A DNA stretch of 64,000 nt from Candidatus Melainabacteria bacterium (GTDB lineage: Bacteria; Cyanobacteriota; Vampirovibrionia; 2-02-FULL-35-15): positions 406,661-470,660 of the forward strand of contig JAHFBF010000001.1 of the NCBI GenBank assembly GCA_023250195.1. The letters run 5' to 3'. The notes under the pieces were generated by a model. It saw only the letters and a program-made list of their open reading frames with translations, had not been told where the DNA came from and ran no database searches. Shown here one piece after another: positions 8,967-45,347 of the stretch; the stretch's first letter is position 1; each line of letters begins with the position of its first letter. The translations under genes were made by a program, and so were the position numbers.

Positions 8967-9689
8967 ATGAAAAAGATAATTGCATTTGCACTGGCGTTGA
9001 TCTTGTTTGCACCAGTTGCATTAGCTGAAGAAAGCAGTTTTGAAAATTTGGTTTTAGATATTATTAAAAAAAATCCACAAGTTGTTAAAGAAGCTCTGGA
9101 AAAATATGAAAAAGAAGCTTCTGGCAAAAAACAGGAAGATGAATTTAATAAATTGTTTGAAGATACTGTAAAAGTTGAAATTGGTGATTCTCCTATAAGA
9201 GGAGATAAAAAAGCAGAATATACAATAATTGCTTTTTCAGATTTCCAATGCCCATTTTGCAAACGTGGTGATGACACAATTAAAGAGCTTATGAAAAAAT
9301 ATGACAAAAAAGTTAACTATGTTTTTAAAAATCTTCCTTTAGGTTTTCACCCTGAAGCAAAAAATGCAGCAAAAGCAACATGGGCAGCAGGCAAACAAGG
9401 GAAGTTTTACGAATATCACGATAAGTTATTCGAAAACCAAGGTAAACTTGCTGAGGATCTTTATGTTCAAATAGCAAAAGACTTAGGATTAAATCTTGAT
9501 AGATTCAACAAAGACAGGGCAAGTGAAGATGCTGAAAAATCAATTCAGGCAGACTCAAAACAAGCACAGGATATCGGTATTCAAGGAACCCCGGGATTTG
9601 TCTTGAACGGTGTTAAAATTCTTGGTGCCTATCCAATTGATCATTTTGAAAAAATTATTTCTCACTTTGAAACTACAGCAAAGAAGTAA
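8967..9689 (+). CDS. DsbA-like thioredoxin-fold thiol:disulfide oxidoreductase, secreted
   Basis: RBS AAGGAG 7 nt upstream; signal peptide (MKKIIAFALALILFAPVALA); CxxC active-site motif in FSDFQCPFCKRG; size typical of DsbA family. Confidence 0.75.
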   Translation: MKKIIAFALALILFAPVALAEESSFENLVLDIIKKNPQVVKEALEKYEKEASGKKQEDEFNKLFEDTVKVEIGDSPIRGDKKAEYTIIAFSDFQCPFCKRGDDTIKELMKKYDKKVNYVFKNLPLGFHPEAKNAAKATWAAGKQGKFYEYHDKLFENQGKLAEDLYVQIAKDLGLNLDRFNKDRASEDAEKSIQADSKQAQDIGIQGTPGFVLNGVKILGAYPIDHFEKIISHFETTAKK

Positions 9690-14573: not shown

Positions 14574-14608
14574 CAGCGTAGAGACACAGTTACCGCGTCT
14601 CTACGCTG
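14574..14608 (-). terminator. 12-bp stem hairpin overlapping the stop of 14601..14894
   Basis: CAGCGTAGAGAC-N11-GTCTCTACGCTG between the LuxR-type gene and the PMM gene start. Confidence 0.4.
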
Positions 14609-14894
14609 TCTTTACTTCTTGTTCTTTTTTCTTTTCAACAGCGGAACTTAATAATCCGGAATAGATTGCAATTGCTGTAGCCTGTGATCTATTTGAGATT
14701 TTTAATTTTATAAAAATACTTGAAATATGATTTCTCACAGTTGAAGGACTTAATATTAAGCATTCAGATATTTGCTTATTAGTCTTTCCTTGTCCAAGAT
14801 GAACCAAAACCTCTTTCTCTCTGTTTGTTATAGGAAGATTAGACAGCCTATCTACAAAACTTAAATCCATAACATCGTTTTCTTTTATGCCCAT
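14601..14894 (-). CDS. LuxR/GerE-family HTH transcriptional regulator (single-domain)
   Basis: C-terminal LuxR-type HTH: REKEVLVHLGQGKTNKQISECLILSPSTVRNHISSIFIKLKISNRSQATAIAI. Confidence 0.8.
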   Translation of the reverse strand: MGIKENDVMDLSFVDRLSNLPITNREKEVLVHLGQGKTNKQISECLILSPSTVRNHISSIFIKLKISNRSQATAIAIYSGLLSSAVEKKKEQEVKTA

Positions 14895-15279: not shown

Positions 15280-15579
15280 TTAATTTACTGCAGGCACCGG
15301 TTCATCTTTTTCAAATGGACTTAGATTCAATAGACCTGCATAAATAGCTATTGCTGTAGCTTGAGATCTATTAGAAATATTTAATTTATTAAATATACTG
15401 GATATATGATTTCTAACAGTAGAAGAACTCAACACCAGCACTTGGGATATTTGTTTGTTCGTCTTGCCTTGAGCAAGGTGAACTAATATTTCTTTTTCCC
15501 TTTTAGTAATTGGTAGCTCAGTTATTCTGTTTACAAATCCAAGATCGAGAAGAGGACTTTCTTTTAATTGTAATTCCAT
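15280..15579 (-). CDS. LuxR/GerE-family HTH transcriptional regulator (paralog of 14601..14894)
   Basis: REKEILVHLAQGKTNKQISQVLVLSSSTVRNHISSIFNKLNISNRSQATAIAIY, nearly identical HTH to the neighbour. Confidence 0.8.
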   Translation of the reverse strand: MELQLKESPLLDLGFVNRITELPITKREKEILVHLAQGKTNKQISQVLVLSSSTVRNHISSIFNKLNISNRSQATAIAIYAGLLNLSPFEKDEPVPAVN

Positions 15580-18889: not shown

Positions 18890-20161
18890 ATGAGTATTGT
18901 TGAAAATATTACCCGTGCGTTTAAACATAAAAATTACAGAAATTTTTTTTTCTGGCAGTTCTTATCATTTACTGGGACATGGCTTCAAAATACTGCACAA
19001 AGCTGGCTTATATATCGCCTAACTGGCTCTGCTTTATTTTTAGGTCTGGTTAGCTTTGCAAGTTCATTGCCTGCATTAATACTTGCACCAATATCCGGAG
19101 TAACTGCCGATCGGTTTAACAGAAGAGATATACTGCTTACAACCCAAATATTATGCGTAATACAGGGAGTAATTTTGTCAGCGTTGTTTTTTAGTGGCCA
19201 TATAAACAAATGGCAGATTTTAATTCTTGCGATTTTTCTTGGCATGGCAAATTCTTTTGATGTTACAGCCAGACAAACATTTATTCCGCTTCTTGTTACA
19301 AAAGGCGATCTTTTAAATGCAATTGCACTTAATTCATCCATGTTTAATGCAGCCAGAATCATCGGTCCGGCACTTGCCGGAATATTAATATCAAAATACG
19401 GTGAAGGCGTTTGTTTTATTTTAAATGTACTTAGTTATTTGCCTTTTATTGTATTTTTATTTCTTGTAAACATAAAAGAACAAAAAGCAAAAGAGTTTAC
19501 ATCTTCATTAGCACATTTAAAAGAAGGTATTTCATTTGCCTGGAATGCACTGCCTATAAGAAATTTGCTTCTTTTACTTGGCATATATAGTCTTTTCGGT
19601 ATGTCATTTACAACCTTAATGCCGATTTTCAGCGATCAGATATTACATAAAGGAGCAAAAGGACTTGGAATATTAATGGGAGCATCAGGGATTGGTGCTG
19701 TAGTTGGAGCATTGTTTTTAGCATCCAGAGAAAAGGTTCTTGGCATAAAAAAAATAATTGCTCTCTGCAGTGTAGTATCAAGCATTTGTATCTTTATTTT
19801 TGCTTTTTCAAAAATATATTTGCTTTCAATCTCACTCCTAACCATAATAGGATTCTGTTCAATCATAATAATCTCAGGCAGCAATACTGCAATGCAGGCA
19901 ATGTCTCCTGACAACTTGCGAGGAAGAGTTATCGGGCTTTTTTCAATGATGTTTATGGGAATATTTCCGCTTGGCAGTTTAACTGTAGGCTTTTTAGCAC
20001 ACATGTTAGGTGCACCAATAGCTGTCTCAATCGGAGCTGTGATTTGCTTCTTGATGGCAATATATTTTTCAATGAAAGTTCCAATGTTGACTAAAAAAGC
20101 TAAGGAGCTGATTTGCACACAGGAAAGAGCAGGTATTGTAATAGAAGAACAGATTAGTTAA
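18890..20161 (+). CDS. MFS transporter
   Basis: 12-TM hydropathy pattern; loop 2-3 motif GVTADRFNRRDILL typical of major facilitator superfamily. Confidence 0.85.
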   Translation: MSIVENITRAFKHKNYRNFFFWQFLSFTGTWLQNTAQSWLIYRLTGSALFLGLVSFASSLPALILAPISGVTADRFNRRDILLTTQILCVIQGVILSALFFSGHINKWQILILAIFLGMANSFDVTARQTFIPLLVTKGDLLNAIALNSSMFNAARIIGPALAGILISKYGEGVCFILNVLSYLPFIVFLFLVNIKEQKAKEFTSSLAHLKEGISFAWNALPIRNLLLLLGIYSLFGMSFTTLMPIFSDQILHKGAKGLGILMGASGIGAVVGALFLASREKVLGIKKIIALCSVVSSICIFIFAFSKIYLLSISLLTIIGFCSIIIISGSNTAMQAMSPDNLRGRVIGLFSMMFMGIFPLGSLTVGFLAHMLGAPIAVSIGAVICFLMAIYFSMKVPMLTKKAKELICTQERAGIVIEEQIS

Positions 20162-20454
20162 GTTTTTTTCAATTCTAATTTTATACTTGCTAATTCTGAC
20201 AAGACTCTATCCATCTTATTTTCAAGTCTATCAACTCTCTTTTCAACAGATCCAATTTTTTCGCCAAGAGAACCTATACTTTTATCCATGGATGTCAGTC
20301 CAAAGCTGTTCCATGATGTGGCCAAAAAAATTGAAAGCATAATCGGTAAAGTCATCTGAATAAATGGAGTATTTTTCCAATTTTCAAGGAATCCAACCTT
20401 TAACTCTAAAGCTTTTACTCTTTGTTCAATAGGATCAATCATAGCTTTATTCAT
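20158..20454 (-). CDS. hypothetical small membrane/coiled-coil protein
   Basis: ORF only; one hydrophobic segment flanked by heptad-like charged regions. Confidence 0.35.
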   Translation of the reverse strand: MNKAMIDPIEQRVKALELKVGFLENWKNTPFIQMTLPIMLSIFLATSWNSFGLTSMDKSIGSLGEKIGSVEKRVDRLENKMDRVLSELASIKLELKKT

Positions 20455-20922: not shown

Positions 20923-21132
20923 TTATTGTTTTTTTGCTTTTTTATGTTTCTTTGTTTTCTTTGTTGACTTTTTTTTCTTTGGAGTTTCGTTTTCACTATC
21001 TTCCAAAGCTGCAGTTTGGACTTCCTGAACACCTGCGCTAAGCTGTTCTGAAGCTGTTTTTATCTCTTGTGCTTTTACAGAAGCATTAAGAAACAAAGAT
21101 ACAGCACAAAGTGCGATTATTGTTTTTTTCAT
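20923..21132 (-). CDS. small secreted Lys-rich protein
   Basis: Internal Met (MKKTIIALCAVSLFLNASVKA) gives a signal peptide; the ORF-track N-terminal extension to 21228 runs through inverted repeats and is probably not translated; C-terminus poly-Lys. Confidence 0.4.
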   Translation of the reverse strand: MKKTIIALCAVSLFLNASVKAQEIKTASEQLSAGVQEVQTAALEDSENETPKKKKSTKKTKKHKKAKKQ

Positions 21133-21337
21133 TTTCTTCTCCTTATTGTTTCTACCAGAAAAATCCCTACGAGATTTTCCCTTTCCCTTTCCGGCATGCA
21201 AGATATTCTTCCTCAGAACATCTTGCACTTATATTTTGTACATGAGAAAAATTTCTCATGTCCCGGCTCAGAAAAAAAATTATATTAAAAAAGAGGATTT
21301 GATTTCAATAGATGATCCTGTAAATTCTTTATAAATC

Positions 21338-21404
21338 TGTAACCGTAGGTTACACGAATTGATAAAAAATTTTTAAGGTTCGTGAAATGTAACCGTGGGT
21401 TACA
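21338..21404. promoter_or_regulatory. pair of 17-bp palindromes TGTAACCGTAGGTTACA and TGTAACCGTGGGTTACA (operator-like)
   Basis: Two TGTAAC-N5-GTTACA sites with 50-bp centre spacing; the same motif pair recurs at 41284..41330. Confidence 0.5.
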
Positions 21405-25015: not shown

Positions 25016-27964
25016 CTACTGCCCTGCAGGGAAGTCACAAATTACACGGAAGCCACGAGTACTCCCTGTAGCTGTAGTTTGATTTCTAAAGTCTGCTGTA
25101 ATAGGCGATGTAGCATCACTGGTTGAAGTATAATTTCCTCCACGAGTTATTGCATATTGAGCATCAGTACTATCCGTAAACAGTTTACCGCTATTCTTAC
25201 CACCATTTAAGTCAGCAGTAGCTCCAGATTGTGTTGGAAGACCTGATCCTTCAAAGTCTATGTCTACAGCAGCAGCACCACCTGCAATATCCTGAAAATT
25301 AAAGACACTGTTGTTTGTTGTAAATGGCAGTACTATTCCAGCTCCTGGATAGCCAGAATCAACTATAAAATCTGAACCACCAGACATAGAAGAATTTGTA
25401 ATCGTAAGGTCTCCCCATTCTTCTACATTACCAATCAAGTCATATACCTGCTTATCACCATCAAATGCACTATTTGAGTTAGTTACATCATCAGCTATTG
25501 CACTGGATGCAAATGTAGTACCATCAGTATTCTTAGTAGCTGAACCATCCAAAATATGTCCCCAGCTTTTAAAGCCAGTACCAGTTAAACATCTATCTCC
25601 AGTACCACTTTGATTTGGATCATCAGCACATTGGAATGAAGCACTATTTCTTAGATCTCTGTTTCCATCCCTGGTATTTCCTCTTTCATTCCAACCATTT
25701 GTAGCGGTTGCACCAAAGATGCTTTTTTGTTTTGCAAATCTGCCCAGTATATAAAGTGCTGTCCATTCCTTATTTCCAATAAGTTTACACGATCCTAAAG
25801 ATGAAATTTGGGCACTGGAAGCAGATGCGTTTGCTTTTGCAGTTGAGTGGCTTATGTTAGTCCAAGGTACTACATTTCTCTGACTGACAGGAATAGAAGA
25901 ACTGCCCTCTGCGGTAGCAGTAGCATCTGCTTTTGATGCTTCATATTTATTAATCCAGAAACCCCCAAAAACAATTCCATTAATAATAAATCTTGGTATT
26001 CTTACCATTCTTGTTGTACAAAGTGAAGATGGTGATACATCACATGAGCTTGTTGAGAAGGTCTTTTCATCTGAGTATGAATTCCAGCTAGAGGAAACTT
26101 CCTGAACTGTAGGAATATCATTTGCTCCTTGGCAGTCAGCCACTGTACATGACCCACTTACGTTTATATCTTCAGTAGCTGTATCACATGAACCATTGCC
26201 GTTTAAATCCCAGCAATTTAAACCATTAGTTCCATTGGTACCGTTAGTTCCGTTGGTTCCATTTGCTCCATTAGTCCCATTGGTTCCATTTGCTCCGTTG
26301 GTTCCATTAGTTCCATTACAGACATAATTTGTTGCTGTGACTTCACCGGAATCTAAAGTATTGTCATTATTTGAATCAAGCCCTGATTCTACTTTCTTGC
26401 CACCAGTAGAACAATTTGTTCCTGCTGATTCTGTAGTAATCTTTACCAAACTGTTTAAACCATTAGTTCCATTGGTACCGTTAGTTCCGTTGGTTCCATT
26501 TGCTCCATTAGTTCCGTTAGTTCCGTTAGTTCCATTGGTTCCATTACAGACATAATTTGTTGCTGTGACTTCACCGGAATCTAAAGTATTGTCATTATTT
26601 GAATCAAGCCCTGATTCTACTTTCTTGCCACCAGTAGAACAATTTGTTCCTGCTGATTCTGTAGTAATCTTTACCAAACTGTTTAAACCATTGGTTCCAT
26701 TGGTACCGTTAGTTCCATTGGCTCCGTTTGCTCCATTGCAGACAAAAGATGTTGAACTTACTTCACCAGAATCAAGCACACTATTTCCATTAGCATCAAG
26801 ACCAACTTCTATTTTTCTTCCACCTGTTGCACAATTTGCTCCGGCTGATTCTGTGGTTGATTTTGTAAGTGCATTATTTCCACCCATTCCATCACTACCA
26901 TTGCTTCCTGCATTTCCAGCAGTTCCAAGTGGAATAGTAAAAGTCAGGTTACAAAGAACCGGATCAAAAAACGCATCAGCCTTTGTCCCTGGTGCACCAT
27001 TATTTGCTGAGATCATTAATAATGCATTTAGATCATTACAGACACCCATACCATCCATGCCATTAATCCCATCCATTCCATCCATAATTACAACGGTAGG
27101 GATAGTTTCAGGAGACAAACTATTTGTTCCAAGGGTCTGATTATTTACAAATACTCCACCTACAATAGTTACTGTTGAGTTAAGAATCGGACTTGTAATA
27201 GTTATATCTCTAGATCCAACTGGAGCATCACTTTTCGGAGTAGCTAACACATCCAAAGTTGAATCATCTAAAGCTATAGTCTCTCTTACAGTAATATCAT
27301 TATTGCTGAATGAAACTTCTGTAAATGCATCTAATCCTTTACCTTTAATTGTAAGTTTATTTTCTACCCCGGCCTTTAGATCCCGTGTTATTGAATCAAG
27401 CCTAAACTCAGGTAGAGTAAACACAATCGTGTCAGCAGAATCATTGCCATCAACAGTAGCTCTTAAAGTATATTGGCCTGGTTTTAACCCTTTTACAAAA
27501 ATTTTGAATATTTTAAAGTCCAGGGCCTGAACTATTGAGCTTTGATTTTGAGTTTTATTTAAATTAAACGTAACTGATTGATTTTTTGTAACTATTTTAT
27601 TTTTACCTGTTTTTATTAAGTTTTGATCTTCTCTAAGCTCTGATATTCTAAATATCTTTAATCCAGTCATTAAAAGTGTGGCATTGTCAATTCCAAGACC
27701 TGTTCCCTGTGCACCAATAACTTCTACTTTTACAACCATTGCATCAGGCTTAAGTAACAGATCCAGGGATACTCTTTGATCAAGTTCTATATTATTCCTG
27801 TTATATCTGAATGCCGGCAATAAATTAGCTGATATTCTCTCTTGAGAAATTGTACTTCTGGCTTTTACTGCATAAATATTAACTGCATAAGCAGCACCGC
27901 TTTGATTCAGCAGAAGTACAGCTATTAATACAACCTTACATAGAAGACTTAACTTATTTTTCAT
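25016..27964 (-). CDS. giant secreted protein: conserved N-domain, Gly-Thr-Asn triplet tracts, Asp-rich repeat modules, C-terminal FGE-sulfatase (SUMF1)-like domain
   Basis: Signal peptide; N-terminal 330 aa nearly identical to 28187..32443; (GTN)n tracts; about 45-aa modules ...TESAGTNCSTGGKKVESGLDSNNDNTLDSGEVTATNYVCNG; C-terminal FGE-type motifs MVRIPRF...WINKYEAS, NKEWTALYILG, QVYDLIGNVEEW, TRGGNY...GFRVICD. Confidence 0.85.
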   Translation of the reverse strand: MKNKLSLLCKVVLIAVLLLNQSGAAYAVNIYAVKARSTISQERISANLLPAFRYNRNNIELDQRVSLDLLLKPDAMVVKVEVIGAQGTGLGIDNATLLMTGLKIFRISELREDQNLIKTGKNKIVTKNQSVTFNLNKTQNQSSIVQALDFKIFKIFVKGLKPGQYTLRATVDGNDSADTIVFTLPEFRLDSITRDLKAGVENKLTIKGKGLDAFTEVSFSNNDITVRETIALDDSTLDVLATPKSDAPVGSRDITITSPILNSTVTIVGGVFVNNQTLGTNSLSPETIPTVVIMDGMDGINGMDGMGVCNDLNALLMISANNGAPGTKADAFFDPVLCNLTFTIPLGTAGNAGSNGSDGMGGNNALTKSTTESAGANCATGGRKIEVGLDANGNSVLDSGEVSSTSFVCNGANGANGTNGTNGTNGLNSLVKITTESAGTNCSTGGKKVESGLDSNNDNTLDSGEVTATNYVCNGTNGTNGTNGTNGANGTNGTNGTNGTNGLNSLVKITTESAGTNCSTGGKKVESGLDSNNDNTLDSGEVTATNYVCNGTNGTNGANGTNGTNGANGTNGTNGTNGTNGLNCWDLNGNGSCDTATEDINVSGSCTVADCQGANDIPTVQEVSSSWNSYSDEKTFSTSSCDVSPSSLCTTRMVRIPRFIINGIVFGGFWINKYEASKADATATAEGSSSIPVSQRNVVPWTNISHSTAKANASASSAQISSLGSCKLIGNKEWTALYILGRFAKQKSIFGATATNGWNERGNTRDGNRDLRNSASFQCADDPNQSGTGDRCLTGTGFKSWGHILDGSATKNTDGTTFASSAIADDVTNSNSAFDGDKQVYDLIGNVEEWGDLTITNSSMSGGSDFIVDSGYPGAGIVLPFTTNNSVFNFQDIAGGAAAVDIDFEGSGLPTQSGATADLNGGKNSGKLFTDSTDAQYAITRGGNYTSTSDATSPITADFRNQTTATGSTRGFRVICDFPAGQ
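26221..26317 (-). repeat. hexanucleotide (GTTCCR/TTGGTN) tract encoding (Gly-Thr-Asn)n
   Basis: CCATTAGTTCCATTGGTACCGTTAGTTCCGTTGGTTCC...; further tracts at 26458..26548 and 26688..26740; the opposite strand reads PLVPLVP (artefact ORFs 26337..26555, 26565..27140). Confidence 0.85.
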
Positions 27965-28131
27965 TTTTGCAGCTCCCCAATTTTCTTAACTGGATAACTC
28001 TTCTCAGATCAAGACTAAGAATAAGTTAAATCCAAGTACAAGCCCTTTTGTGATCCATGGCAACCCTAAGATCATGTTGCACTGGACATCATTCACTTGA
28101 TATAAAGACAAAGTTATTTATTGCAAAAAAA

Positions 28132-28157
28132 TAGGGTGCACTGTTACATGCACCCTA
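28132..28157 (-). terminator. rho-independent terminator downstream of 28187..32443
   Basis: TAGGGTGCA-CTGTTACA-TGCACCCTA hairpin, duplicate of 24951..24980. Confidence 0.7.
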
Positions 28158-28186
28158 AAAGTTTTTCACGAAGAGGCTCTTACTCT

Positions 28187-31100
28187 TTAGAAGTCACAGA
28201 TTACACGGAATCCACGACGCTCGTCAGTAGTAGTAGTCACATCATTACCATCAATTATAAGTGGTGAAGGAGCACTGGCACCATCATTACAAGCACCACC
28301 ACGAGTTATACCGTATTGTGCATCTGTTGTAGTTGTAGAAAGAGTTCCTGAATTCTTCCCGCCATTTGTATCATTCAAGCCACCATTTGCAGTAGCAGGA
28401 AGTCCAAGTCCACTAAAAGTAGATGATGTTGATATATCTATAGAGTTAAAGATCGCTCCATCTGTCGTAAATGGAAGCACTGATCCTGCTCCTGTATAGC
28501 CAGTATCAACTACAAAGTCTGAGCCAGACATGGTAGAAGAATTTGTAAAAGTATAGTCAATCCATTCTTTTACATTTCCAACAAGATCATAGACCTGTTT
28601 ATCACCATCCAAAGTATCAGCACCTGATCCACCATTGTCATCTTTAACAGCATCTGCTGTACTACCAAGTGAAGTACCTGTCGCATTTATAGTAGCTGAA
28701 CCATCTAAAAGATGTCCCCAGCTCTTATAACCTGTTCCAGTTAAGCAGACATCGCCAGTACCACTTTGATCTGGATCATCTTCACATACAGATGAACCAC
28801 TATCTCTGCCATCTCTGTTTCCATTTCTGGTATTCCCTCTTTCATTCCAACCGTTTGTAGCAGTTGAACCAAAGAGTCCTGTACTTTTTGCAACTTTACC
28901 AAGAATATAAAGAGCAGTCCACTCTTTCATTCCTATAAGTCTGCATGAACCAATACCAGTAATTTGTCTATTTAAACTAGATGCATTTGTCTTTGCAGTA
29001 GCCTGACTTATGTTTGTCCATGGCTCTACTCTACGTTGGCTTACAGGTACACTAGAAGTTCCTTGATCTGTTGCTGTAGCATTTGCTCTAGAAGCTTCAT
29101 ACTTGTCTATCCAGAAACCACCATACTCTACACCTTTATAAGTAAACTTTGGTATTTTTACCATTCTAGTCATACTGCTCATGTCATTTGTAGTGTAGTT
29201 TACTTCATCAGATAAAGTATTCCAGTTATTCACCAAACCGATAATTGCTGCTTCCTGGCAATCATCAGCTGTATATAAACCGTCATTATTTACATCTTCA
29301 GCTGCATCATTTACACCATCTTCATCTACATCCCAGCAGTTAATTCCATTAGTTCCATTTGAACCATTGGTTCCGTTTGTACCATTAATTCCATTACAGA
29401 CATAGCTGGTAGAAGCGATTTCACCACCAGTTAGCATATTGTCATTATTTGCATCAATACCGGCTTCCACTTTCTGACCGCCAGCTGTACAGTTTGCACC
29501 TGAACCTTCAGATGTTACAACAACTAAGCTAGTTGAGCCATTGGTTCCGTTAGTACCATTAGTTCCATCAGTTCCAGCACAATCAGCAACGTCTACTACA
29601 GTATCACCATTTAGATCTTCAGTTGCTACATCACCTACTCCATTATTATTTAAATCCCAGCAGGCTTGTCCGTTGGTTCCATTAGTACCGTTAGTTCCAT
29701 TAGTTCCGTTGGTTCCGTTAGTACCATTGGTTCCGTTTGTACCATTAGTTCCATCAGTTCCAGCACAATCAGCAACGTCTACTACAGTATCACCATTTAG
29801 ATCTTCAGTTGCTACATCACCTACTCCATTATTATTTAAATCCCAGCAGGCTTGTCCATTGGTTCCGTTGGTTCCGTTAGTTCCATTGGTTCCGTTAGTT
29901 CCGTTAGTTCCGTTGGTTCCGTTAGTTCCATTAGTTCCGTTGGTTCCGTTTGTACCATTGGCTCCATTACAGACATAGTTTGTAGAAGTAATTTCACCAC
30001 CAGCTAAAGAACCATTATTATTTGTATCCAGTCCAGATTCTACTTTTTTCCCACCATTAGCACAATTTGCACCAGCTGATTCTGTAGTAACCTTTACCAA
30101 GCTGTTCAAACCGTTGGTTCCATTTGTACCATTAGTTCCGTTGGTTCCGTTTGTACCATTGGCTCCATTGCAGACATAGTTTGTAGAAGTAATTTCACCA
30201 CCAGCTAAAGAACCATTGCCATTTGTATCTATTCCAGATTCTACTTTCTTTCCACCATTAGCACAATTTGCACCGGCTGATTCTGTAGTAATCTTTACCA
30301 AACTGTTCAAGCCATTGGTTCCGTTAGTTCCGTTAGTACCATTAGTTCCATTTGTACCGTTGCATACATAAGTAGTTGATGTAATTTCTCCTCCACTTAA
30401 AGAACCATTGCCATTTGTATCAACCCCACTCTGTATCTTCTTTCCACCATTAGCACAGTTTCCACCTGGGTTTTCATTTGAGGATGTTACAAGTGTTTGT
30501 AAACCATTGCAAACATATGATGTAGCATCAACTTCTCCCGAGTCAAGAGTACTATCACCATCATCATCTACTCCTACCTGAATTTTTCTTCCACCGTTTG
30601 CACAGTTTCCACCTGGGTTTTCATTTGAGGATGTAATTAAACTGTTTGATCCATTACATGCATAAGTCGTAGAGTCTATTTCACCTGCATCAAGTGTGTT
30701 ATCTCCATCATCATCTACTCCTACGCGAATCTTTCTACCACCGCTTGGACAGTTTGCTCCAGATGGTTCGCTTGAAGATGTAATTAAACTGTTTGATCCG
30801 TTACATGCATAGGTTGTAGAGTCTATTTCACCTGCATCAAGTGTGTTATCTCCATCATCATCTACTCCTACGCGAATCTTTCTACCACCGCTTGGACAGT
30901 TTGCTCCAGATGGTTCGCTTGAAGATGTAATTAAACTGTTTGATCCGTTACATGCATAAGTCGTAGACTCAACTTCTCCAAGATCAAGAACATTGTCTCC
31001 GTCATCATCTACTCCTGCCTGAAATTTTCTACCACCACTTGGACAGTTTGCTCCGGATGGTTCGCTTGAGGATGTAATTAAACTGTTTGATCCATTACAT

Positions 31101-32443
31101 GCATAGGTCGTTGATGTAATTTCTCCACTATCAAGAACACCACTTCCATCAGTGTCAGTACCAACTTCAAACTTTTGCCCACCGCTTGGACAGTTTGCTC
31201 CGGATGGTTCGCTTGATGTATTAGTTAAACTATTTTCACCTGCAGGAATACCAAGAACTAAAGTACACAAAATAGAATTAAAAGTAGTAGTAGCTGCTAA
31301 ACCTGGCGCAAGGGTAACATTTGAAATTACAAGTGTTGCATTCATATCATCACAAACACCCATTCCATCAGATCCATTACTTCCATTAATTCCATTAAAA
31401 CCTACAGGAATGCTGAAAGTAAGGTTACAAAGAACTGGATCAAAAAACACATCAGACATTGAACCTGGGATTCCATTGTTTGTAGTAATCATTAATAAAG
31501 CATTCATATCATCACAAACACCCATTCCATCCACGCCATTCATACCATCCATAATTACAACAGATGGATTAATGTTTGCATTATCAGGAGATAAACCATT
31601 TGTTCCAAGGGTCGGATTATTTACAAGTACTCCATTTACTATAGTGACCGTATTGCCAGTAAGCGGACTTGTAATAGTTACATCTCTATAACCATTTGGG
31701 GCATTACTTGTTGAAGTTGCCAATACCTTTAAAGTAGAATCATCTAAAGCTATGGTATCTCTTACAGTAATATCACCATTGCTGAATGAAACTGCTGTTA
31801 ATGCATCCAATCCTTTTCCTAGAAGTGTAAGTGTAGTTTCAACACCGGGATTTATAACTGATGGGGTTACTGCATCCAGTCTAAAGTTTGGCCTTGTAAA
31901 CACAATCGTGTCAGTAGAATCATTATCATCAATAGTAGCTCTTACAGTATATTGGCCAGGAAGACGTCCTTTTACAAATACTTTGAATATTTTAAAGTCC
32001 AGAGCCTGAACTATTAAGCTTTGATTTTGAGTTTTATTTAAATTAAAAGTAACTGATTGATTTTTTGTAACTATTTTGTTCTTGCCTGTTTTTGTCAACT
32101 TTTGATCTTCTCTAAGCTCTGATGTTCTAAATATCTTTAATCCACCCATTAAAAGTGTGGAATTATCAATTCCAAGGCCTGTTCCCTGTGCACCAATAAC
32201 TTCTACTCTTACAACCATTGCATCAGGCTTAAGTAACAGATCCAGGGGTATTCTTTGATCAAGTTCTATATTATTCCTGTCATATCTGAATGCCGGCAAT
32301 AAATTAGCTGATACTCTCTCTTGAGAGATTGTAGTTTTGGTTTTAACTGCATAAATATTAACTGCATAAGCAGCACCGGTTTGATTCAGCAGAAGTGCAG
32401 CTATTAACACAACCCTACATAGAAAGCTTAATTTATTTTTCAT
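28187..32443 (-). CDS. giant secreted protein, paralog of 25016..27964 (expanded repeat modules, C-terminal FGE-sulfatase-like domain)
   Basis: 1418 aa; same signal peptide and N-domain; at least 7 tandem 45-aa modules SLITSSSEPSGANCPSGGRKxxVGVDDDGDNTLDAGEIDSTTYACNGSN (three nearly identical); (GTN)n tracts up to 13 triplets; duplicated CWDLNNNGVGDVATEDLNGDTVVDVADC units; C-terminal YDLVGNVKEW / GFRVICDF. Confidence 0.85.
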   Translation of the reverse strand: MKNKLSFLCRVVLIAALLLNQTGAAYAVNIYAVKTKTTISQERVSANLLPAFRYDRNNIELDQRIPLDLLLKPDAMVVRVEVIGAQGTGLGIDNSTLLMGGLKIFRTSELREDQKLTKTGKNKIVTKNQSVTFNLNKTQNQSLIVQALDFKIFKVFVKGRLPGQYTVRATIDDNDSTDTIVFTRPNFRLDAVTPSVINPGVETTLTLLGKGLDALTAVSFSNGDITVRDTIALDDSTLKVLATSTSNAPNGYRDVTITSPLTGNTVTIVNGVLVNNPTLGTNGLSPDNANINPSVVIMDGMNGVDGMGVCDDMNALLMITTNNGIPGSMSDVFFDPVLCNLTFSIPVGFNGINGSNGSDGMGVCDDMNATLVISNVTLAPGLAATTTFNSILCTLVLGIPAGENSLTNTSSEPSGANCPSGGQKFEVGTDTDGSGVLDSGEITSTTYACNGSNSLITSSSEPSGANCPSGGRKFQAGVDDDGDNVLDLGEVESTTYACNGSNSLITSSSEPSGANCPSGGRKIRVGVDDDGDNTLDAGEIDSTTYACNGSNSLITSSSEPSGANCPSGGRKIRVGVDDDGDNTLDAGEIDSTTYACNGSNSLITSSNENPGGNCANGGRKIQVGVDDDGDSTLDSGEVDATSYVCNGLQTLVTSSNENPGGNCANGGKKIQSGVDTNGNGSLSGGEITSTTYVCNGTNGTNGTNGTNGTNGLNSLVKITTESAGANCANGGKKVESGIDTNGNGSLAGGEITSTNYVCNGANGTNGTNGTNGTNGTNGLNSLVKVTTESAGANCANGGKKVESGLDTNNNGSLAGGEITSTNYVCNGANGTNGTNGTNGTNGTNGTNGTNGTNGTNGTNGTNGQACWDLNNNGVGDVATEDLNGDTVVDVADCAGTDGTNGTNGTNGTNGTNGTNGTNGTNGTNGQACWDLNNNGVGDVATEDLNGDTVVDVADCAGTDGTNGTNGTNGSTSLVVVTSEGSGANCTAGGQKVEAGIDANNDNMLTGGEIASTSYVCNGINGTNGTNGSNGTNGINCWDVDEDGVNDAAEDVNNDGLYTADDCQEAAIIGLVNNWNTLSDEVNYTTNDMSSMTRMVKIPKFTYKGVEYGGFWIDKYEASRANATATDQGTSSVPVSQRRVEPWTNISQATAKTNASSLNRQITGIGSCRLIGMKEWTALYILGKVAKSTGLFGSTATNGWNERGNTRNGNRDGRDSGSSVCEDDPDQSGTGDVCLTGTGYKSWGHLLDGSATINATGTSLGSTADAVKDDNGGSGADTLDGDKQVYDLVGNVKEWIDYTFTNSSTMSGSDFVVDTGYTGAGSVLPFTTDGAIFNSIDISTSSTFSGLGLPATANGGLNDTNGGKNSGTLSTTTTDAQYGITRGGACNDGASAPSPLIIDGNDVTTTTDERRGFRVICDF
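29670..29970 (-). repeat. hexanucleotide tracts encoding (Gly-Thr-Asn)n plus duplicated about 190-bp unit
   Basis: GTTGGTTCCATTAGTACCGTTAGTTCC... tracts at about 29670..29760 and 29858..29970 flanking duplicated ...CAGCACAATCAGCAACGTCTACTACAGTATCACC... units; the opposite-strand ORF 29541..29978 is an artefact. Confidence 0.85.
30470..31210 (-). repeat. tandem about 135-bp coding repeats (45-aa Asp-rich modules)
   Basis: Repeated ...TCCACCTGGGTTTTCATTTGAGGATGT... and ...GGACAGTTTGCTCC(A/G)GATGGTTCGCTTGA(A/G)GATGTAATTAAACTGTTTGATCC... blocks; boundaries approximate. Confidence 0.75.
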
Positions 32444-35756: not shown

Positions 35757-36437
35757 TTACTCAGTATTGAATGTATATCCAACACCTCTAATAGTCTGAA
35801 AAATAGTAGGCTTGCGGGGATTATCTTCAAATTTTTTCCTCAAATATCCAATATGAATATCAACAGTCCTTGTCTCACCATATTGAGCCCAGCCCCAGAC
35901 ATTAGTTAACAGTTCATTTCTTGAAAATACTTTGTTCGGACATTTTGCAAGAGCATATAAAAGCTGGAATTCTTTTTGAGTAAGTTCTCTGATTTCACCT
36001 TTATGTTTTACTTTTCTTTTTTCAAGATCAATTTCCAGATCTTTAACTGAGATTTTTTTTAGGTTTTCTTCATTGCTCTTTTTTAAATTAACTTCAATTC
36101 GAGCAAGCAGTTCATTAATGTGCAATGGTTTCCTTATATAATCCTGAGCACCAAGCTCAAGTCCAATTACTGCATCTATTTCAGATATTTTCTTTGTTAG
36201 AAATATTATTGGATTACTATATCCTTCAGAACGTAAAGATTTACAGACTGAAAATCCATCCAGCTCAGGAAGTGAAACTTCAAGAACAACTAAGTCAGGT
36301 TTCTCTTTTAGTGCAAGCTCTAAGCCTGTTTTTCCGTTCCTAGCAATAATTAATGAATAGCCATTGCGTAACAAGGCATTTTCTACTTGAGCTAACACAT
36401 CGTCATCATCATCGACAACAAGGATTCTCGCATTCAT
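35757..36437 (-). CDS. OmpR/PhoB-family response regulator (orphan)
   Basis: Receiver domain (ILVVDDDDDV, phospho-acceptor Asp in VVLEVSLPELDG) and winged-helix output (TVDIHIGYLRKK...IRGVGY); no adjacent histidine kinase. Confidence 0.9.
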   Translation of the reverse strand: MNARILVVDDDDDVLAQVENALLRNGYSLIIARNGKTGLELALKEKPDLVVLEVSLPELDGFSVCKSLRSEGYSNPIIFLTKKISEIDAVIGLELGAQDYIRKPLHINELLARIEVNLKKSNEENLKKISVKDLEIDLEKRKVKHKGEIRELTQKEFQLLYALAKCPNKVFSRNELLTNVWGWAQYGETRTVDIHIGYLRKKFEDNPRKPTIFQTIRGVGYTFNTE

Positions 36438-36620
36438 AAGTTTGTACTAATCTATCTTTGTTATCATTCTACTACAGTATTTAAAAACTATAAGGACTTT
36501 TTATCTGTTTACTTACTTTGTTTCAATTAGTTACATTAATCAGCTAAATTTTTTACCTTTGTAAAGAACCAATTATTAATACTTAAGATTTCATACATAG
36601 GTTAACCTCTAACTCATTTA

Positions 36621-40255: not shown

Positions 40256-41185
40256 TTATTTCCTCAATAAATAAACAAAAACACCGCCAACATCATATGC
40301 CGGACCAAATCGTTTAACCAATTCAACTCTAAAACCAATGTTTTCTACTTCATTTCGAAATATAGAGTCTGATATTTTATAGTCGCCCCGGGATAAATCT
40401 ATTGAATTATCACCGATCGATTTAGTATTATACAATTCATCTATCTTATCCAGAAGCCGGCTTGCAAGTTTGTTTGCCATTTGAAAATCTTTTGTTTTAG
40501 CAGCATCTTCAATTAAATTTACATTCTCAATAATCAAGCCTATTTGTTCTTTGGATTTTACAGCTTCTTCATTATGGTTTTCATTTAAATCATCAAGTAA
40601 TGTTTTTACTTCTTCCTGGGCTAAATAATTAAACCCTGAATTCAATCCATTAGAAATGATATGCGAATACCAGATAACTGCTTTTATTCTTCTTTCAAGA
40701 TTATTAGAATATTCCGGTAAGTATTCATCACCAATAATATACACACCACCATTTTTCAGTTGGTTGTAAATGTTTTCAAGATACGACTTTAAAGGGATTC
40801 CCTTTTTAACATGGTGGTGAAAACCCTCACTATAAAATACATCTACAGGGAAAGGATGAACGTAGTTAGTAACATCATCACTAATTACTTTTATAGGCAG
40901 GCACTGTTCTTTTATTTTCCTGGAAGCATATTGAATAAAATCTTCGTCATAATCTACCCCTGTAAGATTTATATTTTTAACCTGTCCAATTAAAGTAAGA
41001 ATTCTTGCAGGACCGCATCCAAGTTCAATCACCTCTATAGATGTACTTAATTTCTCTGCTTCTATTGCAACCAGCTCTTTAATAAAATTATCAGCATTTG
41101 CAATATATAAATGTTCATGAGTATTTATGCGAATGTATTCTTCCGGTGAAATGATTGAAGAATAAGTAGGTAAATGCAGGCTCAT
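40256..41185 (-). CDS. class I SAM-dependent methyltransferase
   Basis: Motif I VIELGCGPARIL and acidic motif II LTGVDYDEDF. Confidence 0.7.
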   Translation of the reverse strand: MSLHLPTYSSIISPEEYIRINTHEHLYIANADNFIKELVAIEAEKLSTSIEVIELGCGPARILTLIGQVKNINLTGVDYDEDFIQYASRKIKEQCLPIKVISDDVTNYVHPFPVDVFYSEGFHHHVKKGIPLKSYLENIYNQLKNGGVYIIGDEYLPEYSNNLERRIKAVIWYSHIISNGLNSGFNYLAQEEVKTLLDDLNENHNEEAVKSKEQIGLIIENVNLIEDAAKTKDFQMANKLASRLLDKIDELYNTKSIGDNSIDLSRGDYKISDSIFRNEVENIGFRVELVKRFGPAYDVGGVFVYLLRK

Positions 41186-41283
41186 AATTACTTTAATTAT
41201 GAGGAATAAAGGCTTTAACCTTCAAGTGATTTCATCGATTAAAAATTAAATGTTTCTTAAGAATACTATGATTAACAGATCAA

Positions 41284-41330
41284 TGTAACCAGGAGTTACA
41301 TTTAGATTGAGTTTGTAACCCTGGGTTACA
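41284..41330. promoter_or_regulatory. pair of 17-bp palindromes TGTAACCAGGAGTTACA and TGTAACCCTGGGTTACA (operator-like)
   Basis: Two TGTAAC-N5-GTTACA sites 30 bp apart in the divergent promoter region between 40256..41185 and the ORF6N gene. Confidence 0.5.
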
Positions 41331-41359
41331 CAAAAATAAAGTTACTTATTCAATTTACT

Positions 41360-41917
41360 TTGATAAAAATAATTTTATGCTTTAATAAAGCACTAATTAT
41401 GAGAACTATCTTAATTCCAGAAGAAAAAATTGAAAATAAAATCTTCCTTATGAGAGGAAAAAGAGTAATGCTAGATAAAGATTTAGCTGAACTTTATGGA
41501 GTAAAGACCAAAGTTTTAAATCAAGCTATAAAAAGAAACATGGAAAGATTTCCTGAAGATTTTATGTTTCAATTGACAAAAGAAGAGGCTAATTCTTTAA
41601 GGTCACAATTTGTGACCTTAAAACGTGGAGAACATTTAAAATATCTGCCTTATGCCTTTACAGAACAAGGTGTAGCTATGCTATCCTCTGTTTTAAATTC
41701 CAAAAGAGCAATTCAAGTAAATATCCAGATTATGCGGATATTTACAAAGCTTAGAGAAGTCATAGCCAACAATAAGGAAATTATGCAAAAGCTTAATCAA
41801 CTTGAAAGTAAAATTGAAAAACACGATTCAGAAATTCAGTCTATCTTTGAAGCAATCCGGCAATTAATTTCTATTCCGGAAAAACAAAAAAGAAAGGTTG
41901 GTTTTTATACAAATTAA
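41360..41917 (+). CDS. ORF6N (KilA-N-related) domain DNA-binding protein
   Basis: MRGKRVMLDKDLAELYGVKTKVLNQAIKRNMERFPEDFMFQLTKEE...YLPYAFTEQGVAMLSSVLNSKRAIQVNIQIMRIF is a near-consensus ORF6N domain; coiled-coil C-terminus. Confidence 0.85.
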   Translation: MIKIILCFNKALIMRTILIPEEKIENKIFLMRGKRVMLDKDLAELYGVKTKVLNQAIKRNMERFPEDFMFQLTKEEANSLRSQFVTLKRGEHLKYLPYAFTEQGVAMLSSVLNSKRAIQVNIQIMRIFTKLREVIANNKEIMQKLNQLESKIEKHDSEIQSIFEAIRQLISIPEKQKRKVGFYTN

Positions 41918-42081
41918 GAATGCTGCGGATTAATTGGTATTGGTTCTGATTTTTTCTCTTGATTTTGATTTTCTTGTTGATTTTGTAGATTGTTATTTTG
42001 TTTATTTCCAAATTTACTTTGAATAAAAGAACATCCCTGACAACAGACACAAATTAAAATTATTAGTAAAAACTTAGACAT
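41913..42081 (-). CDS. unannotated small secreted/lipoprotein-like ORF (55 aa)
   Basis: ATG at 42081..42079; MSKFLLIILICVCCQGCSFIQSKFGNKQNNNLQNQQENQNQEKKSEPIPINPQHS; hydrophobic N-terminus with Cys cluster; below the ORF-track length cutoff. Confidence 0.3.
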
Positions 42082-42093
42082 AGTAGTCAGATT

Positions 42094-42402
42094 TTAACCC
42101 GATATATTCTCTTTATACAAGAGGTCATTTAAGACTTCTCCACCAAGCAGATGTTTTTGAATTAAATCTTCAACTCTATCTTCTGTAAAGCCACAATATA
42201 CTGTCCCTTCAGGCCATACCACTATATTTGGCCCTTTTCCGCATAAACCCAGACAAAGCACCCTTGAAGGCCTATAAGTTTTCTTTAAATCAAGCTCTTT
42301 TATCCTTGCTTTAAGTTTTTCAAAGACTTTATCACTACCCTGACATTTACAGGTTTCATTTAAGCAAACCAATACATGCTTTTTATATGGAATGTTATGC
42401 AT
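42094..42402 (-). CDS. thioredoxin-like [2Fe-2S] ferredoxin
   Basis: Four Cys in the family pattern: HVLVCLNETCKCQGS ... VLCLGLCGKGPNIVVWPEGTVY. Confidence 0.7.
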   Translation of the reverse strand: MHNIPYKKHVLVCLNETCKCQGSDKVFEKLKARIKELDLKKTYRPSRVLCLGLCGKGPNIVVWPEGTVYCGFTEDRVEDLIQKHLLGGEVLNDLLYKENISG

Positions 42403-43725: not shown

Positions 43726-44472
43726 TCAAATTAATATTCTGCTCTTCTTTAATACACTAACTAATTTCATAGCTTCTTTCTCAAAATTCTTATAATTACT
43801 CTTATCCACCTGGTAAGCATTTGCCAGGAAATATATAACCATATCAATTGATAACCCGGATTTTAAAAGTTCTATAAATGCAAAACTACTTGTTGAAAGC
43901 TCAAAAAATCTTACATTGAAATTCTTTGGATCCCGATAAATTAGAACATTTGTTATTTGTTTATATATCTTCCCTAAAGGTTGATTATTTTCAATCATTT
44001 CAACAATTTCAGGAATTGCATATTGAAAAGCACAAATCTCATGTACTGGATTCAAGCAAAGAGTCTTATTAGCTTTCTTAATTCCTTCTTTCTCATATAT
44101 TTTCACTTCAAGCCATTCATAACATGCAAGTTCACTTATAAAAGGATAGTTTTTTAAGATGTCTTTTCTCGTAAATAAATATTCGGGTAAATGCTCAACT
44201 ACTTTATTAAAAATTGGAGAGCCTGGCGGATATTTTTCCAAATAATCAGATAATAAATCGTCCCAAATTTTACTCAATAACTTATAAGTCACCGGATAAA
44301 TATTTACAGATAAATCGTGAAAAGAACCTCTGACTAATTCACGGTAAATTTTTATTCTTTCAAGGATTGACCTGGATAAACCTTTAACTTTATTTTTTTT
44401 ACTCCAGACAGAATCAAATAGAATCAAATCTTTAATTACTTTTTGAGTTTTTTTTAGACTATTTAAAGTCAC
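43726..44472 (-). CDS. DUF2063-family partner protein of the MNIO enzyme (HvfC/BufC-like)
   Basis: Start overlaps the MNIO stop (translational coupling); N-terminal half follows the DUF2063 pattern (IYRELVRGSFHDLSVNIYPVTYKLL...YPPGSPIF...LPEYLF...PFISELACYEWLE). Confidence 0.65.
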   Translation of the reverse strand: MTLNSLKKTQKVIKDLILFDSVWSKKNKVKGLSRSILERIKIYRELVRGSFHDLSVNIYPVTYKLLSKIWDDLLSDYLEKYPPGSPIFNKVVEHLPEYLFTRKDILKNYPFISELACYEWLEVKIYEKEGIKKANKTLCLNPVHEICAFQYAIPEIVEMIENNQPLGKIYKQITNVLIYRDPKNFNVRFFELSTSSFAFIELLKSGLSIDMVIYFLANAYQVDKSNYKNFEKEAMKLVSVLKKSRILI

Positions 44473-45347
44473 TAAGCCGCCTTCTTAAAAGATTTCATAA
44501 TAGTCTTGATTTTTTTTATTTCATTGAGCAGTTCTGAGAACTTTGGGAAATTAAAATCCCTTTCCAGCAATACTGCTTTTGGTGTGCATCTTTTTAAAAG
44601 TTCACCAAATAAATTGTAAACATCTCTGATAATTGGTTCACCATGCGTATCAATAATAATTTTCCCTCTGTTTAAATGCCCTGCTATATGTACCTGTACA
44701 GTACGTTCAATAGGAATACTATCCAAAAACCTTATCGGGTCATATTTATGATTTTTACTGTTTACATAAACATTATTTATATCTAGAAGTAACCCACAAT
44801 CTGCTTTTTCAAGGATTTGTGAAATGAAATCTGCTTCACTCATTTCATTATCTATAACCATATAATAAGAAGGATTTTCAATCAAAAAAGGAACCTGGAA
44901 AATATCCTGAGCTTTTTTTATTCTATTTACTAAATGTTTGACTGTAACTTTGTTATAAGGTAAAGGAATCAAGTCATGAATGTATGTTTTCTCAACATAG
45001 TTAAAACATAAATGATCACTAAACCATGAGGGGTCTATAATTTTAAAAAGCTTTTTTACGTTATTAATTAAAGCCGGATCAAACGGTTCTGTACCACCAA
45101 TTGAAAGATTTAATCCATGAGGAATAATTGGAAAATATTTTTTAGCATTTACAAGCCTTTCAAATATTTCTCCACCACGACAGATATAATTCTCAGGAGC
45201 AATTTCAAGCCAGTCAATTTGATTTTTATGTCTCAGAATAGGGCTATATAACTCTCTTCTTAGTCCAAGTCCAACCCCAAAATTTGGTAATTTATTTTTT
45301 TCTTTTTGAAATGTTTTTCCCATCACCGCCACATTGACCTTCACCAC
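44472..45347 (-). CDS. MNIO (multinuclear non-heme iron-dependent oxidative enzyme, DUF692), RiPP-modifying
   Basis: Ordered DUF692 hallmark motifs: FGVGLGLRRE, WLEIAPENY, HGLNLSIGG, FSDHLCF, FLIENPSYY, LLLDINNVYVNS, VQVHIAGH, IIDTHGEPI, AVLLERDFNFP. Start uncertain (GTG 45347 or ATG 45323). Confidence 0.85.
   Translation of the reverse strand: MVKVNVAVMGKTFQKEKNKLPNFGVGLGLRRELYSPILRHKNQIDWLEIAPENYICRGGEIFERLVNAKKYFPIIPHGLNLSIGGTEPFDPALINNVKKLFKIIDPSWFSDHLCFNYVEKTYIHDLIPLPYNKVTVKHLVNRIKKAQDIFQVPFLIENPSYYMVIDNEMSEADFISQILEKADCGLLLDINNVYVNSKNHKYDPIRFLDSIPIERTVQVHIAGHLNRGKIIIDTHGEPIIRDVYNLFGELLKRCTPKAVLLERDFNFPKFSELLNEIKKIKTIMKSFKKAA

Follow-up and report, generated by a model that had tools for sequence, protein, structure and literature searches.

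Paired palindromes in a Melainabacteria genome and its relatives: probable sites of one shared activator, with an ORF6N gene more likely a target than the regulator

Among the activator-dependent promoters of the CRP/FNR family, those of cyanobacterial NtcA combine a GTA-N8-TAC palindrome at -41.5 with a -10 box and have no -35 element. Class II and class I activation of this CRP/FNR/NtcA type is recognized by a base-exact distance to the core promoter, by replacement of the -35 element and, when sites lie further up, by a core promoter of their own. The lux and tra boxes of LuxR and TraR are 18-20 bp palindromes centered at -42.5. NrdR, a repressor, and ComK bind as oligomers to two palindromic boxes set whole helical turns apart; the ComK box of Bacillus is AT-rich (AAAA-N5-TTTT), and the ComK regulon includes an ssb gene along with DNA-uptake and recombination genes. 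Here, we describe an element that resembles each of these in part: a TGTAAC-N5-GTTACA palindrome present as two pairs, at 21338-21404 (pair 1) and 41284-41330 (pair 2), in a 64,000-nucleotide stretch of contig JAHFBF010000001.1 (hereafter, the window) from a Candidatus Melainabacteria bacterium, one of the uncultured relatives of cyanobacteria. Pair 2 lies upstream of a gene for a protein with an ORF6N domain. Our preferred reading, to which we give a probability of roughly 0.6, is that the palindromes are sites of one factor of this lineage that controls a small regulon, most probably by activation, and that ORF6N is a target of this factor rather than the factor itself.

How does the element compare with the described systems? 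As in CRP/FNR/NtcA promoters, a palindrome with a predicted center near -42 stands in for the -35 element, and promoters with upstream sites only keep their core elements; extra sites lie upstream at distances that approach whole turns without matching them exactly. Unlike the even CRP-family dyads, TGTGA-N6-TCACA or GTA-N8-TAC, the dyad is odd, TGTA-N9-TACA (17/19 bp, in 36 of 36 sites), and, to our knowledge, one bp wider than any CRP-family site; its inner AACC/GGTT is as conserved as the outer bases, and no CRP-family gene was seen. With lux and tra boxes, the element shares its palindromic form, its length (19 bp) and its position relative to the -10 element, but the sequences are unrelated save for the outer ATGT...ACAT. 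It is reminiscent of NrdR and ComK boxes in that two near-identical palindromes occur at a few discrete spacings, and of the ComK regulon in gene content; its sequence differs from both, and no nrd genes are involved. The Streptomyces box of BldD, an actinobacterial repressor of developmental genes, is TNAC-N5-GTNA with a central A/T; the element matches it in pattern only (core TAAC-N5-GTTA plus the central A/T), whereas the conserved flanking bases differ. Finally, the HLR1 element bound by cyanobacterial RpaB is a direct repeat of two (G/T)TTACA(T/A)(T/A) octamers, 2 nt apart and with a 10-bp period (PMC6525291). The half-site GGTTACAT fits this octamer, a T follows ACA in 72% of half-sites and GTTACAT equals the HLR1 unit; yet the half-sites here are inverted, with 3 nt between the 8-mers and 11 bp from center to center, and complete sites form pairs at 30 or 50 bp. 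The element thus works like class II/class I activator promoters with paired sites, while its sequence falls outside the definitions of CRP/NtcA, HLR1, NrdR, and ComK sites. A literature search for the motif in several spellings returned no matching paper.

One element at two window loci and in their relatives

Exactly four TGTAAC-N5-GTTACA matches are present in the window (Table 1), as compared to a mean of 0.01 expected from 100 dinucleotide-preserving shuffles, and three of the four have the stricter 7+3+7 form, TGTAACC-NNN-GGTTACA. The first-pass annotation had described two such sites 30 bp apart upstream of the ORF6N gene, in a region shared with a divergent S-adenosylmethionine (SAM)-dependent methyltransferase gene, and both the sites and the gene layout are as it had them, apart from the distance to the start codon (see below); the sites of pair 1 are spaced by 50 bp, start to start. 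The element is all-or-nothing in the window, because allowing two or three mismatches adds matches at chance level only; sites of intermediate quality are absent. Elsewhere, the window resembles unremarkable chromosome from a bacterium of high AT content.

Further copies are present in AT-rich contigs matching Melainabacteria. Scanning metagenomes for site pairs with 8-38 nt between them brought up at least 120 loci of mixed nature (tandem arrays, CRISPR-like repeats, a high-GC class forming larger inverted repeats), among them a coherent AT-rich subset with a GC content of 0.30-0.35 and the 7+3+7 form, in which the sites follow each other, start to start, at 30-32 or 48-51 bp (in one case at 39 bp). 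The consensus of 36 sites is a-TGTAACC-nWn-GGTTACA-t; at positions that the search pattern did not demand, C7/G11 is kept in 93%, the flanking A/T in 72% and a central A or T in 86%. By contrast, a scan of viral contigs for the single site gave at least 120 isolated matches and no pairs, which we take, from a rough estimate of the size of the collection, to be about what chance would yield for 14 fixed bases.

No pair lies solely between convergent genes; each has at least one gene downstream (about 25 loci). The genes that follow recur: comM/yifB, in each case after a cytidine deaminase gene (L097, of which L100 is the same sequence reversed, L138, L152, L155, and L160), and smp, encoding proteins of 68-91 residues with two predicted membrane helices (L112, L120, L122, L147, L195, L173, L115, L192, and L135, where smp is followed by genes for a 38-residue membrane protein and then PilC). 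A degenerate ORF6N gene (L095), a gene for a 97-residue GIY-YIG protein (L173) and one for a 216-residue protein without assigned family (L140) complete the list. The smp proteins are only 22-74% identical to one another (median 39%), as opposed to the nearly invariant sites. The smp product was first considered as an autoregulated factor and ruled out: it is a two-helix membrane protein of some 70 residues without DNA-binding features.

Loci that were found by protein similarity, and not by the site, tell the same story. Homologs of smp at 57-69% identity have the pair in 3/3 loci (L330-L332). Among ssb loci, the pair of L205 matches that of the window in place and spacing, that of L207 is degenerate, again with 50 bp between starts, and L206 has a single site. 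Another site in L206 precedes a UPF0102 gene, by 35 nt, and a gene for a tyrosine recombinase. The ORF6N loci L202 (80% identity to the window protein) and L208/L209 (68%) contain one perfect 19-mer each, 48 nt before the start codon. The element is thus kept at ORF6N and ssb loci of relatives (L205, L207, L202, L208, and L095), and in L207 (GCA_016196635.1; 9325-10519) the two become one: 3 nt separate the ssb stop codon from the ORF6N start, and both genes belong to an operon headed by the secreted-protein gene and preceded by the one degenerate pair. This arrangement links the two window loci functionally and supports their co-regulation, which the first-pass annotation had suggested; the ORF6N gene and the pair 1 locus (secreted protein and ssb) very probably share one regulator.

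Is the palindrome read as DNA or folded as RNA? Hairpins folded from single sites would be weak (-3.5 and -6.1 kcal/mol, z about -1.6), and the pair regions fold better than their shuffles (z = -3.7 and -4.2), as expected for any repeated palindrome. Across the 36 sites, departures from symmetry are one-sided and never compensated; the stem bases are invariant, and the central three vary save for the A/T preference in the middle. No terminator-like site was found in a scan of 41100-42150, which covers pair 2, and no T run follows either window pair (pair 1 was judged from the sequence); a T run is present only after the single L206 site upstream of ssb. At both window loci, Rfam gave no match at the gathering score (best E 0.1-0.3, unrelated families). 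The uncompensated changes fit recognition of the DNA sequence by a protein rather than a hairpin; together with the invariant stem, the near-identity of sites despite smp divergence and the lack of an Rfam match or terminator, they are consistent with a symmetric DNA-recognizing protein.

Two other kinds of repeat surfaced in the metagenome scan. In contigs of ~70% GC (L086, L102, L109, L114, L116, L119, L121, L124, L133, L144, L151, and L153), pairs of the TGTAAC-N5-GTTACA core lie 53-55 bp apart, their two N5 segments are mutually reverse-complementary and a further inverted repeat lies between them, forming a larger palindromic element of a different kind. In L089, L105, L111, L132, L180, L194, and others, the 17-bp palindrome pattern is part of tandem arrays with a period of 22-44 bp (CRISPR- or iteron-like), unrelated to the window element.

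Promoter geometry and the sign of regulation

With the final base of the promoter-proximal site as the anchor of the alignment, 16 promoters share one layout: the site, 18 nt, TGn, a -10-like hexamer (TTTAAT, TTAAAT, TATATT, TAAATT, or TAGATT), 7-8 nt and the start codon, with no -35 element. These are the promoters of comM in 5/5 loci, of smp in nine loci and of ORF6N in L202 and L208; the UPF0102 promoter in L206 has the same layout shifted by one base. TGn followed by a -10-like hexamer occurs at 0.0028 per position in the background, and the probability of finding it in 16 of 23 promoters at up to three fixed offsets is ~1e-28. If transcription starts 7 nt after the -10 hexamer, the mRNAs would be leaderless and the site would be centered at -42, in place of the -35 element, with the partner site at -72 or -92.

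The window pairs belong to a second type, in which the sites lie further up. A 53-nt gap separates the proximal site from a -10 hexamer that has a -35 element of its own (TTGAAA, TTGAAT, or TTGATT, with an 18-nt spacer) at the ssb operon of the window, in L205 and L207, and at smp in L135; for ORF6N, in the window as in L095, the gap is 50 nt, to TGcTTTAAT. Measured from the predicted -10 elements, the window pairs are centered at about -71/-101 (ORF6N) and -74/-124 (ssb operon), some three or more helical turns above the -42 position, and are thus class-I-like. The centers at -71, -74, -92, -101, and -124 are 2.8, 3.1, 4.8, 5.7, and 7.9 turns away from -42 (at 10.4 bp/turn): roughly, not exactly, in phase.

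We regard the element as most probably an activator site because the distance to the -10 element is fixed, the -35 element is replaced and the promoters with upstream sites keep core elements of their own. One sequence-specific dimeric or tetrameric transcription factor of a Melainabacteria/Vampirovibrionia-like host would bind the palindromes and control comM/yifB, the operon for a secreted lysine-rich protein and a short SSB, ORF6N and smp (sometimes followed by pilC), with GIY-YIG and UPF0102 nuclease-like genes as occasional further targets. At most promoters, one site at about -42 would replace the -35 element at a fixed distance to an extended -10 element (TGn) and give rise to a leaderless mRNA, and a second site, 30 or 50 bp further upstream, would lie on roughly the same helix face; the window pairs would represent the upstream type. 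The gene content of such a regulon suggests a DNA-uptake/recombination or a DNA-damage program. In this scheme, the conservation of the sites, their association with particular genes and their regular distances are observed; where transcription begins, whether regulation is positive, the physiological role and the binding of a protein at all are inferred.

Several observations weigh against this activator scheme. No regulator gene is found beside any site in the loci examined, and all promoter positions rest on predicted -10 elements. Perfect pairs were the selection criterion for the loci from metagenomes, which accounts for some of the apparent invariance. The 30- and 50-bp spacings are slightly under whole turns (10.4-10.5 bp/turn), and the 39-bp spacing in L122 is out of phase. 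In L115 and L192, the proximal site at the Zn-dehydrogenase genes runs right up to a -10-like TAGAAT, a position expected of a repressor. Finally, the 33-nt spacer of the 50-bp pairs is conserved, approximately GATTAAATTTTTCTCATATTCGTGAAA, with ATTAAA 6-7 nt from one site (window 21355-21387; L097, L112, L120, L138, L147, L152, L160, and L330-L332), and is present in both orientations before the same gene: L138/L160 vs. L097/L152 at comM, L120 vs. L147 at smp. The activator scheme does not explain this; since each site is palindromic, a pair doubles as an inverted repeat, and an inversion of the spacer by recombination would leave the sites unchanged. A transcript from the spacer hexamer ATTAAA(T) would begin AUGUAACC..., with an AUG and a UAA immediately behind it, at the distance used by the leaderless genes.

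Could the sites be operators for a repressor instead? The first-pass annotation called the pair operator-like; the palindrome pair is real, but an operator in this sense is doubtful, with the fixed distance to the -10 element pointing to an activator. A repressor of an SOS-like or stress response, bound to both sites, would occlude or loop out the promoter, with induction following its inactivation. The gene set (ssb, comM, nuclease-like genes, and the anti-repressor-like ORF6N) resembles DNA-damage regulons, the dehydrogenase sites touch a putative -10 element, and, where the spacer faces the gene, a -10-like TTTAAT within it would be flanked by both sites. Yet a fixed 18-nt distance to TGn and the -10 hexamer in 16 promoters that have no -35 element is what an activator, not a repressor, needs, and the window pairs lie 50-53 nt upstream of the -10 hexamer, beyond simple occlusion. 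A tblastn search with E. coli LexA found no match in Melainabacteria-type loci, which sample a small fraction of any genome, and a sole match in an unrelated deltaproteobacterial locus. On balance, we regard repression as unlikely.

Candidate binders

Which protein, then, recognizes the palindromes? An OmpR-family response regulator akin to RpaB, WalR, or MtrA, which would use GTTACAT half-sites as an inverted repeat, is an improbable candidate. Melainabacteria are the sister group of cyanobacteria, the half-site fits the HLR1 unit and the window encodes an OmpR-type response regulator (35757-36437) whose best models are MtrA, YycF, and RpaB, with slightly higher scores for the first two. However, HLR1 is a direct repeat and the sites here are inverted repeats, and the window regulator, a generic member of its family, scores 187 bits against the RpaB model, far under the curated cut-off of 330. 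A near-site with two mismatches, TGTTTCAATTAGTTACA (36519-36535), lies 82 nt upstream of the regulator gene; an OmpR-type regulator with its own conserved site was considered and rejected, as the near-site is not kept in the close relative L205. The window also encodes two small GerE/LuxR-type helix-turn-helix proteins (14601-14894 and 15280-15579). No site lies near their genes and nothing ties proteins of this type to the motif, though the -42 geometry of lux-box-type activators would suit.

The candidate closest to hand is ORF6N itself, for which the first-pass annotation had proposed autoregulation. The protein would bind the palindromes as a dimer of dimers joined through its C-terminal helices, and regulate its own gene and ssb, with comM and smp as further targets by extension. 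The ORF6N domain is predicted to bind DNA; the long C-terminal helices in a structure model of low confidence (mean pLDDT 64) could mediate oligomerization; and the site is present at all ORF6N loci of Melainabacteria type that were seen (the window, L095, L202, L208, and, via the ssb operon, L207). Against this stands the family at large, which is strongly conserved (54-84% identity) as a solitary gene in many phyla: the site is present in 0/80 ORF6N loci from other phyla (54-70% identity; reference genomes, ~560 kb; two mismatches allowed near the gene), and their upstream regions share no common palindrome of any kind. Closer to the window, 0/2 loci with a 78% identical protein (L203 and L204) have the site, while L207 (71%) and L208 have it; therefore, how similar the ORF6N proteins are does not predict whether the site is present. 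L095 has a pair and a promoter region homologous to those of the window, with both sites and the -10 region intact, yet its ORF6N gene (699-1069) has suffered an internal deletion and a frameshift that remove ~47 residues (roughly 79-125), the most conserved core of the protein; a second copy elsewhere in this genome is possible. Furthermore, most copies of the element precede genes unrelated to ORF6N, such as comM and smp, and the best PHROG families for ORF6N are annotated as anti-repressors, not as repressors or activators. A fold search with the model found only insignificant winged-helix-like matches (E at least 0.1), a sequence search found no homolog of solved structure, and the literature holds passing mentions only. 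The ORF6N protein as the binder thus seems improbable and the autoregulation proposal runs counter to most of these observations: ORF6N is more likely a target than a regulator.

A variant, in which ORF6N is itself the activator and its specificity or use would differ in other phyla, has a slim chance; if it were true, a highly conserved, widely transferred family would be the master regulator of a DNA-uptake/recombination program in Melainabacteria. The family is represented in Omnitrophota, Nitrospirota, Planctomycetota, Patescibacteria, Bacteroidota, and Melainabacteria, where its gene sits singly amid unrelated housekeeping genes; this distribution (window; L001-L080, L202-L204, L207, and L208) looks like that of a frequently transferred solitary gene. 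In five loci from Patescibacteria and other phyla (L057, L079, L042, L075, and L013), long perfect palindromes of the form GTC(A/G)CAA-N-TTG(C/T)GAC lie 100-160 nt upstream of ORF6N; they differ from the window motif and may be lineage-specific elements. Also, a hairpin element, GTCATTGCGAGG...CGAAGCAATCTC, is present upstream of both a small GIY-YIG gene (L173, ~4740-4775) and ORF6N (L204, ~2870-2910), and may be a short repeated element tied to such solitary genes.

That the pairs are short repeated or mobile palindromic elements, similar to repetitive extragenic palindromes (REP), bacterial interspersed mosaic elements (BIME) or miniature inverted-repeat transposable elements (MITE), or else hairpins or terminators, with no regulatory role, is very unlikely: the 50-bp module with its conserved spacer does occur in both orientations at orthologous positions (L138 vs. 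L152 before comM), the L206 site with its T run is terminator-like and the pair regions do fold, but, in contrast to the longer, regulation-free repeat that the first-pass annotation had named as its refuting case, the element keeps base-exact distances to -10 hexamers and to start codons and sits in each case ahead of a gene, with the same gene families recurring in diverged organisms, whose proteins have drifted to ~40% identity, and the uncompensated stem changes, the weak single hairpins and the negative terminator and Rfam scans described above speak against a folded RNA.

Genes at the two pairs and what the element means

The features at both pairs are collected in Table 1. Homolog alignment places the start of ORF6N at the ATG listed there and not at TTG 41360; therefore, the sites of pair 2 lie 69-115 nt upstream of the start codon, and not at the 30-75 nt given by the first-pass annotation. 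The ORF6N gene is most probably the one controlled by pair 2. The divergent methyltransferase gene has a sigma-70-like promoter of its own (41225-41196), from which the pair 2 sites would lie beyond -100, and it is not conserved beside the sites in L095, L202, and L208, where the upstream neighbors run in the direction of ORF6N; it is probably a neighbor and not a target, which leaves ORF6N as the gene associated with the 41284-41330 sites. Pair 1 follows the stop codon of a gene for a 439-residue membrane protein and lies upstream, on the minus strand, of the genes for the secreted protein and SSB, whose homologs at 77-80% identity are named Candidatus Melainabacteria.

Table 1. Sites, predicted promoter elements and genes at pair 1 and pair 2 (window numbering; site centers are relative to predicted transcription starts)
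Feature	Position	Strand	Remarks
Pair 1, proximal site	21338..21354		Center ~-74; last base 53 nt from the -10 hexamer; same gap in L205, L207, L135
Pair 1, distal site	21388..21404		Read on the minus strand; center ~-124
Predicted ssb operon promoter	21279..21308	-	-35 TTGAAA (21308-21303), 18-nt spacer, -10 TATAAT (21284-21279); same arrangement in L205, L207
Small secreted protein, lysine-rich tail	20923..21132	-	69 residues from ATG 21132; first gene downstream of pair 1; orthologs precede ssb in L205, L207
Short SSB, 118 residues	20505..20861	-	Second gene downstream of pair 1; Pfam PF00436, E = 2e-23
Pair 2, distal site TGTAACCAGGAGTTACA	41284..41300		Center ~-101 from the predicted ORF6N transcription start; position from the predicted -10
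Pair 2, proximal site TGTAACCCTGGGTTACA	41314..41330		Center ~-71; last base 50 nt from the -10 hexamer; same gap in L095
Predicted extended -10, TGcTTTAAT, of the ORF6N promoter	41378..41386	+	Prediction; TGnTTTAAT kept upstream of ORF6N in the window, L095, L202, L208
ORF6N-domain gene, 172 residues	41399..41917	+	Pfam PF10543, E = 6e-38; start codon (ATG 41399) by homolog alignment
Class I SAM-dependent methyltransferase	40256..41185	-	Divergent; left neighbor of pair 2

The proteins of the ssb operon have features of their own. The window SSB ends in ...SLDSKKKPA and lacks the acidic tip found at the C terminus of typical bacterial SSBs, and the gene before it encodes a protein with a signal peptide, an acidic stretch and the lysine-rich tail, which might bind DNA outside the cytoplasm; a short SSB next to such a secreted protein, with comM and pilC in related loci, hints at DNA uptake. 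A gene for a 98-residue coiled-coil protein (20158-20454) occupies the position held by ORF6N in L207. The predicted 5' end of the operon mRNA can form a hairpin in three organisms (window 21240-21261, minus strand; L205, ~9643-9665; L207, ~9293-9315), with the stems ACATGAGAAA/TTTCTCATGT, CCTGACAAA/TTTGTCGGG, and TCACCAGC/GTTGGTGA; the structure is kept and the sequence is not, and it may be a 5'-terminal stabilizing stem-loop. The segment TTTCTCAT of the pair spacer was first suspected to be related to the 21240-21261 palindrome, which is better explained as this hairpin of the 5' untranslated region, conserved in structure only.

Elsewhere in the window, two very large proteins (982 and 1418 residues; 25016-32443) contain three and nine DUF7151 repeats, respectively, along with collagen-like triple-helix repeats. 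At 43726-45347, a gene for an MbnB/TglH/ChrH-family enzyme adjoins a DUF2063/HvfC-like gene, a pair typical of maturation clusters for ribosomally synthesized and post-translationally modified peptides.

What would the preferred reading, one factor acting at paired palindromes, mean for these bacteria? The literature searched contains no transcription-factor regulon for Melainabacteria. The element comes with a precise predicted promoter layout, in which a 19-bp site at -42 precedes an extended -10 element and the mRNA is leaderless. The small gene set that it defines, comprising comM, smp next to pilC, nuclease-like genes and the genes for the short SSB and the secreted protein rich in lysine, may be a marker of natural transformation or of a response to DNA damage in this lineage. 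Through the element, the widespread ORF6N gene also gains a defined regulatory and functional setting; in a single genome, it has been joined outright to the ssb operon.

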